64,000 nucleotides of DNA from Diadema setosum (lineage: Eukaryota), in NCBI RefSeq assembly GCF_964275005.1, contig NC_092698.1, positions 24,289,037-24,353,036 of the forward strand, written 5' to 3'. Shown in pieces: positions 54,761-63,614 of this stretch. The stretch's first letter is position 1, and each line of letters starts with the position of its first letter. The notes beneath the pieces were generated by a model. It did not search any database, was not told where the DNA came from, and was given only the letters and a program-made list of their open reading frames with translations. Position numbers and translations under genes: made by a program.

Positions 54761-54966
54761 TCAAACGTTTCCGTCACTCCACGCGTCCTTGGCGCTGACG
54801 GTTTGTACCGGTTCGACTTTCGCGGTTTCGCCATTGACTTTCGCGTTGTTTTTCTTTTTCCCGCACACGCACCAGCCGCTAATCTCGTCGACGATGTACT
54901 CGCCGAATTGGACCACTGTCAGCGCGCTCGCTCCGAGAAATAAGCCCATGTTGCCGCCAATCACGG
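54761..54966 (-). CDS. Last coding exon of a DEG/ENaC/ASIC-family channel gene, covering TM2 and the C-terminus: (A)VIGGNMGLFLGASALTVVQFGEYIVDEISGWCVCGKKKNNAKVNGETAKVEPVQTVSAKDAWSDGNV*.
   Basis: Matches the ASIC1 TM2 region [35 protein letters not shown]. Minus-strand acceptor ttgtttcaaacag|cc. Stop TGA at 54763-54761. Anchored by ORF 54761-54979(-). Confidence 0.8.
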
Positions 54967-56474
54967 CTGTTTGAAACAAGACACAGACAAAGAAATAGTG
55001 TAAGCAAACGTTTCGTAGTCAGGATATACGATTCTCGATGCTAACAATCATCAGTGACTAAAGTACACAAGGTCCCGGGAGAAAGAAATAAGATCAAATT
55101 CATAAGTGTATTTTCTCAAGTTTCAAACCCTCAAAACAAAAAGGCAACAACAACATCAACAGCAACAACAACAAAGACAATAAAAAAAAAATCAAATTTA
55201 CTAAAGTGCTAAGATTTTCCAACTGTATTTACCAATTTGATCAATCACATATGGTTCAGGTTGGCGGCTAAGTTTGCCGTGACATTGTACAGTTTTGTTT
55301 TGAAAGACTAAATGTGGTTGTATACCAAAATATAAAAGTATGCATAAGGGATAATCTTCAGTCAATCTGGCTGTTTAAGAGTTGCTAGAAACAAATTGAA
55401 TTATATAATAGGTAGATGACTATAGAGTATACCAAGAATGTGTTTGTTGAAAAGATGTAATAACTTTCCTTCAGAACGTAAGCGTTTACTTATAGTTCGA
55501 TAGTGTTTCATTTTTGATAATGGATAAAACTTTTCGTTATTTTTCATGGAACTGCGAAATAAAAAAAAAATGTTTAAAACCAGTTTTTGTCTGTATTGTT
55601 TTGTATTTTGAACCCTTCTTTATCCATTAGACGTAATGACCAAAGCATCGGGACATTTTACTATCTAAGCGCTACCTTTTGCGTGATCAAACATGTAAAG
55701 ATTCTGAAAGATTGTTCAAACTAATATACGAAATCGTTTTGGTATTAATACGCACTTCATGTAAAATCGATTAGGTCCTGTTTACCTTTGGGAACAGTCA
55801 TTTTAAACATTTTTTTTTTAAAGATATGACATTATATTGCATATGAGTTTGTCTGTTGTAGCACAAAACATTCTATATATATATAATATTACATATAAAT
55901 TTTCGCGATAGAGCCTAAAATATGAGGAGATATCTGTATTTTTCTCATGAAACCGTAACTCTGGAGGGTTTAGTCTGGAAGCCTTTTTTATTATAACTAT
56001 TGATCACATTTTGTATATTTAACAATACTTACCATCGATTTTACAGATTCATATTTTCACAGTGGTTGTTTCTACCTCTAACTCACATTTTAGAACTATT
56101 GTAAAGCACCAATGCCGGGTTTTTGTTTCATCTGCAAAATGGTAAATTTTGCCTTTAACCCCTTACGTACCAACGAGTCTAATGTGCACAAATTTCAAAC
56201 AAACCTATAGACAGAAAATTAACGTGGCACGCAGATAGTAAGGGACGACTTCAAGATAAACGCTTATGCATCTATGACGTATCCTAAAATGCTTCATGTG
56301 TACATGTATCCGCTGGTAAAAGGTTATCTATATGCAGCGATCTTTCAAAGCGGGAATCTTTCCTAGATGGGTCTAATTGCCCTGTCATTCATTTTTGTTG
56401 CTGATACAGTTGTTGTTAAGATGATCATATTGAAATACGTACACATTGATAAATATGATAAACAGGTATCTTAC

Positions 56475-56566
56475 CTAAAAGAGTAGGGAGCGTGTACTCA
56501 GGCAGCATTTCAATGGTCTCGTAGTTAAGGGCCTCGTAGTAGAAACTTATTATTGCAATGTTGTTG
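56475..56566 (-). CDS. ASIC-like exon encoding (D)[30 protein letters not shown](A).
   Basis: Matches ASIC1 [32 protein letters not shown]. Minus-strand acceptor cctttcag|c and donor tttta g|gtaaga. Confidence 0.8.
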
Positions 56567-57323
56567 CTGAAAGGTTGGAAAGAAGAATTGAGATGAAAGC
56601 TCGATTTATATTTAATATGTCTCTATTAATACTCATACACAACAGGCATAATAGTATGTACAAATGGACAGTAATACATTGATGATATACATGCATACAT
56701 AATTATGAATGTTATATTATATCTATGCGTGGCATTCATTAATTTTGTTCTATGGCACGTCATGATGATATTTTTTAGTATTGCACGGGCAATTCCGTGT
56801 TAAAAAAATGGAATAAGTCATCTTGTTTACCTTGCACTGGCTTTCGGCCCCCATGAAATAAAAATGCACTTTATGGGCAATCATGCGTTAAATTTGTCGT
56901 GCATATAATCCAGCATGTGCATTCAAGATCATGCCCTATTACATTATGTCGCATAATGTGTGTGTATGCGTGTATACAATTTTTGAACTTAGCTTGAAAT
57001 ACGCACATCCACCACGAGAGTATGTTTATTTGTAGTTGCAAGTGTTTGCGTCTTTTTTCTTTTTAAGATTTTTTTTCATCTTTTAGAAAAAAAGAAATTA
57101 TCACGTATAGCGTTTTAAATAACATTCTCTATTTTTCCGACAATTTGATATTAAAACTATTAAAATGACGTCCGCTCCGACCATGAAATTAGACAATTAT
57201 CTACAATTTAAGATGACACGACATTCAGGTGTATGGCATAAAACAACATTTGTGATTTTTGTGGCCTCTGGAAATCACGACCCATTCTAGACAAAGATAT
57301 GTTCCAAGGAAATGTTCTCTTAC

Positions 57324-57489
57324 TCGATGTATTCTGTGGTGAAATTGTTCGACGAATTGCTGTACTGCTTCTCCAGAAAAGAAGAACGCAATTTGGACTG
57401 GGTTGCCGTGAACGGGTAGTTCTCGAATATACACGGCGATTTGCACTCGCACGTTTCGTCCGTATCCAGCGTTCCCGCTATAAATTCTC
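57324..57489 (-). CDS. ASIC-like exon encoding (R)[54 protein letters not shown](D).
   Basis: Matches ASIC1 [53 protein letters not shown]. Minus-strand acceptor tcgttcag|ga and donor atcga|gtaaga. Anchored by ORF 57320-57511(-). Confidence 0.8.
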
Positions 57490-57835
57490 CTGAACGACAA
57501 ATGGAAAACACATATCAAAAGTAGAGAGAGAGAGAGAGAGAGAGACGAGTGGGGGCACAAAACATGATATAATAATACACTTAAAAAGAATGATTGCATA
57601 AGAGACTCATATTTTCCAGGAATGCAGCTATGTATTTCCAATACATTACAACTCGCTTTACAAGTTTACCTGTGTAGACTGTATGCACGCTTTTTTCTTT
57701 CATTCTACTTCCTTGGGCGCGCAATCATGCATCCTCGTTCATTTTTACTTGTTTCGATTTTTGAAAGCATTCTTATTTTTCATCCCAATCACCCTGACTT
57801 CTGAAACTCTGACCCAGTGATAACCTCTTATTATA

Positions 57836-61450: not shown

Positions 61451-61589
61451 CTGCTCCTGCACTCTTCGACACGAACCAGTTCTCCTTGTCCGATTCATCC
61501 GTTTGGGCGTTGAAGGTGAAGCAATTGCCGAGATGGGTTAGCACAGATGTGAGGGCGCCATCCTCACACTCTTGGTCATCCCAGTCACA
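61451..61589 (-). CDS. ASIC-like exon encoding [46 protein letters not shown](A).
   Basis: Matches ASIC1 [44 protein letters not shown]. Minus-strand acceptor (ct)n..ccaaag|tgt and donor gcag|gtacag. Anchored by ORF 61380-61601(-). Confidence 0.8.
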
Positions 61590-62601
61590 CTTTGGTGTCA
61601 AGATAGCAAGAGAGAGAGAAAAAGGGGGGGGGGGGATGGAAGGAGAAGGAAAAGAAGGAAAGAAAGAGGGACAAAAGTGAGGGCGATGGTCAGTTAGATG
61701 TACGAGCAGGAACTCTACTTTTCAAATAAACACCGATTTTATTTTTTCTTCTTCAGAGCAAGGAATATATATATATATATATATATATATATATATATAT
61801 ATATATATATATATATATATATATATATATATGTATGTATATATATATATATATATATATATATATATATATATATATATATATATATATATAGATAGAT
61901 AGATAATACGCGCTTACAAGAATGATTATGTTACTAATAGGTAATATACATCCTCAATTTCTGTTCAATTCAACTTTATATCACTTCCCAACATGATCCT
62001 CCTAAATATAGGTTTCATTTATAAAAAGAGACAAAATAAAGAAATGCAGATTTTGCATTCTTCATGTCAATTAAAAGTCATCGAGTTGGTTGCTGTTAAT
62101 ACATTATAGTATTGCATCCTGCATTAAATCGTGCCATATAAGAAGGCCTTTGTAATATTTCATCTCGAGTCACTGTGCTGTGGATGGCCGTTGTTTGCTT
62201 ACTTTTGATTACTAATCTTCACACTCCCCCCCCCCCCTACACACAGTCTGAATCTAGTTCTTCTCGATAGCTATTTGTTATTTTTAGTCCTCTTCAGAAT
62301 GCTAGTTTAAAAGCTTTGTTTATTTAGTTGGATACTGACTTTCAGTGGGTGGAGATATTTCGCTTTTTCTATTCTACGATGTCTATTCTTTTACTTTGTA
62401 TTCTGCATAGATTTATCTACTGAGCGATATTCGGGTGATTTGTATCAGCAATAGTGTTATGAGCAGCAGCGAACCAATCCGATTTACGTATGGGGAACCC
62501 CCTCAAGTAGTATACCCAATCTGCTTATTGTTCATAATTATACTCAATATAAGAATGCATGTTTCCGGTAATCCTGTCGTATATGTACAGAGGTAGCCTA
62601 C

Positions 62602-62768
62602 CGAGACAACGACGTCCTCAATTTGGTGTCCAGTTCGCATGGTGAACTCCGTCATGTTGTAATCGCTGTCTTCATCGACCGCCGTCCAGTTCACGTTATC
62701 CAGAAAGTCACGGAACTCGTCGGTATAGAGATTGGGGTATATCAGGTCATGATCTTCGTCAATGATGC
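62602..62768 (-). CDS. ASIC-like exon encoding (G)IIDEDHDLIYPNLYTDEFRDFLDNVNWTAVDEDSDYNMTEFTMRTGHQIEDVVVS.
   Basis: Matches ASIC1 ...[20 protein letters not shown]. Minus-strand acceptor tttttcag|gc and donor tctcg|gtaggc. Anchored by ORF 62503-62694(-). Confidence 0.75.
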
Positions 62769-63556
62769 CTGAAAAATAAAAGAAAAGAAAAAGATACTAG
62801 AATCATCCTAGCACATCAGAGCTAGATGTGCAAAATGCCCCCCCCCCCCAATTGTACTACTTGAAAACTTTACAACTTTAACAACTTGCAAGTTACGAAC
62901 CTAAGAACAAAGATTTCCCTCTGTCGCCAGAAAGTTTTTCCAAACTTTCATCATCGGTATTTCTTTCAACGAAGCTCTAACTGAATGATACAAACTAGAC
63001 CTGACCCAGGTTGAATGACACATTCCTCAATGTCATTGAAAGCAGGCCAATAAATTTAAAATGACATGGTACCACTTAAAAAGACACAATTCTTATCATG
63101 ATTTAGAAATATGACGAAAGTCTCTTAGTGGAATTTATCATCAAAGACGAAAATGAGCTGTTCTATGGACCTCTATTTTTTCCTGTGTATTGCAAGGAAT
63201 GATACATGTAAACACCTCCTTCTCTTACTCCGAAGAAGGAAAAAAACAACAACATGGCCAACAAATAAACAAATTGACTGCTGGAAACGATTATAAACGA
63301 AAAAGGTTCACCAGCGTCAGCAATCATATTTCCGTGAGTTTATTTTATCAAATCAAATCAGGTCTGAACTAACCTTGTCTACTCTAATGATCACCAGTGA
63401 TTCAAATATGACTTATGTTTATGCACCTGTCGATAATCATGTTAAGACATGTATGACGTACATGATTTTTAACTAGGTTGGTATATCTTGGTTTGGGTCT
63501 ATATTATGTTGCACATGAGATTAAAGGGATATGCAAGAATATGTAATTCGCATTAC

Positions 63557-63614
63557 CTGAGTACACATCGGCAGGATAACTATTTTTCTCTCCTTTACTG
63601 CTGAAGTTATGAAA
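63557..63614 (-). CDS. Candidate small ASIC-like exon encoding FHNFSSKGEKNSYPADVYS, a possibly divergent post-TM1 FPAVTxC region.
   Basis: Minus-strand acceptor tttttag|ttt and donor tactcag|gtaatg. The phase fits the 62768 exon (g + gc). The alignment [23 protein letters not shown] versus FHNFSSKGEK--NS--YPADVYS is weak. Confidence 0.3.

Follow-up and report, generated by a model that had tools for sequence, protein, structure and literature searches.

The minus strand of a 64,000-nucleotide stretch of Diadema setosum DNA (contig NC_092698.1; hereafter the window) carries a multi-exon gene that very probably encodes an ASIC-type channel of the DEG/ENaC family and represents the echinoid orthologue within the ambulacrarian "Group B" ASICs. 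Seven exons between 54761 and 62768 are bounded by AG acceptors and GT donors and join into one unbroken frame of 389 codons, closed by a TGA stop at 54763-54761 (Table 1). Along the minus strand from 54000 to 64000, short GC-richer open segments, each flanked by a polypyrimidine-AG and a GT, stand between AT-rich stretches with microsatellites. The original prediction, a reading of the letters of the window, had proposed a minus-strand gene of this family covering 54761-63614, with seven exons and clean splice consensus. The exon number and the splice sites hold, and so does the lower end, where the stop codon ends at 54761; the upper end has to be revised, given that coding sequence inside the window stops at 62768. 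All of the peptides quoted in support of that gene, including GLFLGASALTV, were found in the minus-strand product at the sites given for them.

The family membership is clear from profile and structure comparisons. The spliced product was run against the Pfam ASC profile (PF00858), the check that had been suggested along with the prediction, and matched with E=2.9e-74 and 251.2 bits, far above the curated gathering cut-off of 23.6 bits; an absence of ASC similarity, which would have spoken against the gene, is thus clearly not what is seen. The match covers profile positions 129-455 of 455, so the N-terminal quarter of the domain is missing from the window product, and the full-length orthologue of Diadema antillarum matches over positions 3-455 (E=2.3e-100). 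Among solved structures, ASIC1 and ASIC2 of chicken and human rank first (E=7.5e-67 to 3e-65), with the other DEG/ENaC structures scoring much weaker (ENaC alpha, 8e-31; ASIC5/BASIC, 4e-29; FaNaC, 9e-24; pickpocket (PPK), 1e-9). The top match in the protein database is an NCBI entry named "acid-sensing ion channel 1C-like [Diadema antillarum]", with 98% identity over 100% of the query. The nearness to ASIC1 and ASIC2 and this annotated orthologue, together with the ASC match, bear out the proposed family and strand.

Identity falls with taxonomic distance, from 63-66% to the ASICs of other sea urchins, to 50-55% for those of starfish, sea cucumber and brittle star, and to approximately 40-55% for hemichordate and amphioxus ASICs, where the upper values stem from models of partial coverage. 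In a simple, rough neighbour-joining tree, which was built without labelled Group A and Group B sequences, the product groups with its D. antillarum orthologue among the echinoids, which in turn fall within the echinoderm ASICs. The ASICs of hemichordates, amphioxus and chicken (ASIC1) branch outside this echinoderm group, the product standing within the deuterostome ASICs, and mollusc and cnidarian DEG/ENaCs form the outgroup.

Residue signature and proposed gating

Residues were numbered through a HMMER alignment to full-length chicken ASIC1, and the conservation of columns was read from an alignment of 14 sequences (the product and 13 homologues). ASIC1 has 14 extracellular cysteines, which form seven disulfides. 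All 13 that fall in the window part of the protein (C173 to C366 of chicken ASIC1) are conserved, and their columns are invariant in the alignment; the 14th (C94, in FPAxTxCN) belongs to exon 1, which lies outside the window, and the orthologue has it. Positions 54934-54926 specify the GAS belt (G10'A11'S12'), within GLFLGASALTV, and both L7' and L14' are kept, as is a thumb motif of 12 residues. In the second transmembrane segment (TM2), the product has Val at 0', Gln at 18' and Glu at 21', as in other urchins. Q18' and E21' are also found in the sea cucumber, the brittle star and both hemichordates, and the starfish paralogues are mixed (Q/E) at 18'. Of the palm/wrist residues (rat ASIC1a numbering), the window product keeps the equivalents of E411 and E416, and the orthologue keeps those of H73 and D78, which its exon 1 encodes.

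A function can be proposed from the characterized relatives. When Group B ASICs of echinoderms and hemichordates (Lynagh et al. 2018, as cited in PMC9949801 and PMC7062507) were expressed heterologously, they gave proton-gated currents (PMC9949801). Moreover, a low Na+/K+ selectivity was reported for the Q18' ASICs of sea urchin and acorn worm, and likewise for ASIC1a/2a with the E18'Q mutation (PMC7062507). Since the pore signature is shared with the Group B ASICs, the same behaviour would be expected of the window gene, namely a proton-gated and weakly Na+-selective channel. By analogy, this single-copy echinoid orthologue would give a full protein of approximately 498 amino acids, with a cytoplasmic N-terminus carrying the HG motif, the first transmembrane segment (TM1) and FPAITVCN encoded by exon 1, and with exons 2-8 supplying the Cys-rich extracellular domains (finger, beta-ball, palm, thumb and knuckle), the TM2 that holds the GAS belt, and a C-terminus that is short. 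Three subunits would assemble into a trimeric cation channel, in which extracellular acidification would protonate palm/wrist residues, leading to a brief opening and then to desensitisation. Discrimination between Na+ and K+ would be weak because 18' is Gln and not Glu. As the Lytechinus variegatus ASIC is expressed in the larval ciliary band (PMC9949801), the channel would probably act in peripheral sensory or ciliary-band neurons.

Several points weigh against this picture of a complete, proton-gated Group B channel. The acidic pocket of chicken ASIC1 is mostly not conserved, with E239, D346 and E354 replaced by Gly, His and Gly, respectively (D238 is kept as Asp and D350 as Glu). D433 (0') is Val, and the K211 column holds Ser, with a Lys one residue earlier, beside an alignment gap. 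In addition, the Group B label appears to lean on the literature and on the rough neighbour-joining tree, and the completeness of the gene in this genome would have to be taken from the orthologue, exon 1 being outside the window.

The losses in the acidic pocket, at 0' and in the K211 column are also what could favour a DEG/ENaC of ASIC ancestry that is not proton-gated here, and that works instead as a peptide-gated, mechanically gated or constitutive leak channel. We consider this quite unlikely. In the alignment, the same substitutions are seen across echinoderm ASICs, and members of the clade, including the sea urchin Q18' subunit, are reported to be proton-gated (PMC9949801, PMC7062507). 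According to the former, only the chordate Group A ASICs have an obvious acidic pocket; thus, its loss is typical of the clade and is not evidence against proton gating. The same source describes H73, D78, E411, E416 and K211 as fairly conserved in all ASICs, and of these, the window product has the palm/wrist pair E411 and E416, and the 98%-identical orthologue has the pair H73 and D78 on its exon 1. Also, nothing peculiar to this sequence favours another stimulus. About as unlikely is the idea that the Diadema ASIC is gated or strongly modulated by a non-proton agent, for example a neuropeptide as in FaNaC/HyNaC, so that proton sensitivity would be secondary in vivo; its starting point is that echinoderm ASICs have neither the acidic pocket of chordates nor D0' nor a strict K211. 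A still weaker variant would place a Diadema lineage-specific alternative 5' exon somewhere past the window. A proton-gated, weakly selective ASIC therefore remains the preferred reading of the residues.

The Lys that precedes the K211 column in Diadema (SKSAGA, exon 3, 61451-61470) is an observation of its own. Other echinoderm orthologues are without a Lys at this place, and in the hemichordates and amphioxus of the alignment, the K211 column itself holds Lys or Arg. This residue may be relevant to the way in which echinoderm ASICs make up for the palm-thumb interaction of Lys211.

Orthology, constraint and the first exon

The D. antillarum orthologue is an NCBI protein of 498 amino acids (P0001; GCA_040938485.1, contig JBFRCO010000039.1), and the stretch with its locus is referred to as L001. 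The window product corresponds to residues 110-498 of P0001 plus the split codon of Gly109, with eight substitutions over 389 residues. Collinearity between the window and L001 extends from the PARP/VIT/VWA gene downstream across all of the ASIC exons, and position 64000 aligns to L001 14719. The coding sequence is 97.0% identical between the two urchins (95-99% for single exons), versus 84-88% for the introns, and the differences comprise 27 synonymous and 8 non-synonymous ones, corresponding to a synonymous rate (dS) of 0.113, a non-synonymous rate (dN) of 0.0088 and dN/dS=0.078. Together with the shared splice sites, this low ratio points to strong purifying selection and excludes a decaying pseudogene, so that, as judged from the comparison of the two loci, the window gene is intact and constrained. 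The divergence at silent sites and in introns points to a window from a diadematoid sea urchin closely related to D. antillarum, or else from a very deep haplotype, and not from the D. antillarum assembly itself.

That the window ends within intron 1, with exon 1 out of view, would leave room for a truncated or decaying copy whose 5' exon was lost in this genome. Such a pseudogene is very improbable, considering that the frame is open over seven exons, that all 14 splice sites are conserved, that substitutions are mostly synonymous, that exons (~97% identity) stand well above introns (~85%), and that intron 1 stays collinear with the orthologue up to position 64000. We thus retain an intact, constrained gene that continues past the end of the window.

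The part missing from the window can be described from the orthologue. In D. antillarum, residues 1-109 (MSCKPGKLHIRHWAAEVTDFHGLKHVAGNYGGAFRRIVWLLLFLLALGYCTYQCALVIITYRSHSHVTKIDVEYETEVSFPAITVCNFNKYRESAFTDDDIKNVGVHLG) are encoded by one 325-nucleotide exon (L001 10001-10325, donor GTGAGA, phase 1), followed by an intron of 5.9 kb. The N-terminal hallmarks are all present on this exon and are canonical, with the HG motif in FHGLKH, TM1 (RRIVWLLLFLLALGYCTYQCALVII) and FPAITVCN, the latter 25 residues upstream of the junction between exons 1 and 2 (...FPAITVCNFNKYRESAFTDDDIKNVGVHLG|IIDEDHD...). The N-terminal 108-112 residues were sought across the whole window with a permissive tblastn search (word size 2, E up to 1000), which returned only noise (best E~1). 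This agrees with the prediction, which had found neither TM1 nor the N-terminus and had placed the 5' end near or past 64000. Given the collinearity with L001 and the alignment of position 64000 to L001 14719, the window ends inside intron 1, and exon 1 is expected to lie approximately 4.4 kb beyond position 64000, if the intron is of similar length. A search of the orthologous intron 1 of D. antillarum for an alternative first exon encoding TM1, in the style of vertebrate ASIC1a/1b, gave none, and the stop-free runs in 62769-64000 of the window do not exceed 58 codons and are without ASC similarity.

One further, candidate exon had been proposed at 63557-63614, which, if real, would give a divergent motif, YPADVYS, after TM1. 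In the proposed frame this segment reads FHNFSSKGEKNSYPADVYS, and the YPADVYS string is truly present there. In the window, it is flanked by a polypyrimidine/AG acceptor and a GTAATG donor, and its frame is open over 19 codons and in phase with exon 2. D. antillarum, on the other hand, has AT in place of the donor GT and a 2-bp indel that shifts the frame, and its identity to the segment (~86%) is at the level of the surrounding intron, versus 95-99% for the real exons. Depending on the acceptor, the segment is 58 or 44 nucleotides long; as neither is a multiple of three, it cannot enter in frame between the phase-1 exon 1 and exon 2, and stops are reached at codon 111 or 132. Nor does it fit a coding first exon, with an in-frame stop directly upstream and without an ATG. 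As for the motif, exon 2 is truly preceded by ...NVGVHLG, and FPAxTxCN is found 25 residues upstream of that junction in each of the 13 aligned homologues. Because of this spacing, a 19-codon exon with its motif directly before IIDEDHD misfits the family, leaving no space for the residues in between, and the canonical FPAITVCN already sits in exon 1 of the orthologue. A real lineage-specific alternative exon with a divergent post-TM1 segment can hence be practically dismissed: 63557-63614 belongs to intron 1, where an open frame happens to lie next to a GT, and this part of the original prediction falls away.

Table 1. The ASIC gene in the window, with positions counted from the first letter of the window and comparisons made to D. 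antillarum
Feature	Position	Strand	Details
Intron 1, 3' part, running past the window end	62769-64000	-	Collinear with D. antillarum intron 1 (L001 14719-16203), 84-88% identity
Coding exon 2 (first in the window), 167 nucleotides, finger region; encodes (G)IIDEDHDLIYPNLYTDEFRDFLDNVNWTAVDEDSDYNMTEFTMRTGHQIEDVVVS	62602-62768	-	Acceptor tttttcag, donor gtaggc; tblastn match to P0001 residues 109-164; 95.2% nucleotide identity; length and splice sites equal in D. antillarum
Coding exon 3, 139 nucleotides	61451-61589	-	98.6% nucleotide identity; three conserved extracellular Cys
Coding exon 4, 191 nucleotides, palm/beta-ball	59991-60181	-	97.9% nucleotide identity
Coding exon 5, 211 nucleotides, Cys-rich thumb	58023-58233	-	97.2% nucleotide identity; seven conserved Cys; donor CTCA/gtaagg
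Coding exon 6, 166 nucleotides	57324-57489	-	96.4% nucleotide identity; three conserved Cys; donor ATCGA/gtaaga
Coding exon 7, 92 nucleotides, palm beta-strands into TM2, carries the E411/E416 equivalents	56475-56566	-	98.9% nucleotide identity
Coding exon 8 (last), 206 nucleotides including the TGA stop (54763-54761), TM2 and cytoplasmic C-terminus	54761-54966	-	Product 100% identical in amino acids to P0001 residues 431-498
TM2 pore helix, positions 0' to 26', VIGGNMGLFLGASALTVVQFGEYIVDE	54884-54964	-	Alignment to chicken ASIC1 TM2

Repeats and neighbouring genes

Downstream of the stop codon by approximately 195 nucleotides, an AATAAA hexamer at 54563-54568 (minus strand) is a putative polyadenylation signal, with which the 3' untranslated region would be short. 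The downstream neighbour lies on the plus strand at ~47800-51850 and below, so that it and the ASIC gene are convergent. It aligns collinearly with a D. antillarum gene for a large PARP/VIT/VWA-domain protein, and this synteny of the two genes is kept in both urchins.

The introns of the ASIC gene contain several repeats. Long microsatellites of the types (TA)n, (TA)n(CA)n, (GT)n and (TTCAA)n are found at 61770-61900, 57830-57995, 60200-60225 and 59900-59965, and the alignment to D. antillarum breaks at several of them. A near-palindromic foldback element of approximately 630 bp (58815-59443), with nested inverted arms that are 87-100% complementary, sits in the intron between the exons at 60181-59991 and 58233-58023. 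The corresponding site of D. antillarum (L001 18495-18499) lacks it, and neither the window nor L001 has a second copy; its appearance is that of a lineage-specific insertion of a miniature inverted-repeat transposable element or a foldback transposon.

Further away, a fragment of a non-LTR (long terminal repeat) retrotransposon lies at 43967-45428 on the minus strand (RVT_1, PF00078, E=1.7e-20, with a YADD motif). D. antillarum has a copy of it at a non-syntenic site upstream of its ASIC gene (L001 3120-4575); at 96.8% identity, the fragment is about as conserved as the ASIC exons and far above the syntenic introns (84-88%), which suggests that this retrotransposon family was recently active or is common to both urchins. 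Also, a dispersed repeat of approximately 370 bp is shared, in inverted orientation and with 82% identity, between 32564-32923 of the window and an intron of the D. antillarum ASIC gene (L001 21884-22259). An Rfam scan of 43000-64000 identified no structured RNA genes.

Relation to known ASICs

The gene is an ordinary one, already annotated in D. antillarum, and has no structural, architectural or contextual departure from its subclade. Its value lies mainly in a correct annotation, which adds one further orthologue to the ambulacrarian Q18' ASIC clade. A reading of the raw sequence alone recovered a genuine multi-exon animal gene with the correct exon content, and the only potentially surprising feature, the divergent motif after TM1, was an artefact. 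The sequence reinforces the published picture, in which echinoderm ASICs retain the Cys scaffold, the GAS belt and the palm carboxylates, are without the chordate acidic pocket, and have the Q18' that is associated with weak Na+/K+ selectivity.

The closest known counterpart is the ASIC 1C-like gene of D. antillarum, in which all seven exon lengths and splice sites equal those of the window gene; its locus differs in being without the foldback insertion of approximately 630 bp that the window gene carries in one intron. With vertebrate ASIC1 (chicken; 2QTS, 4NTW, 6AVE; E=7.5e-67), the product shares the 13 cysteines, the GAS belt, L7'/L14', E411/E416 and YSLQACRI(D/E)CET. However, the two are only ~34% identical, and the window product lacks most of the acidic-pocket residues and has Val for D0' and Gln for E18'. 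The N-terminal part of the gene is also divided otherwise than in vertebrate ASIC1, since exon 1 of the orthologue ends at residue 109 and is followed by separate exons. The chicken and amphioxus ASICs both have Asp at 0', unlike Group B and the window product. The echinoderm and hemichordate Group B ASICs, in contrast, share the whole pore signature with it, that is, a non-acidic 0', L7', GAS, L14', Q18' and E21', along with the conserved cysteines.

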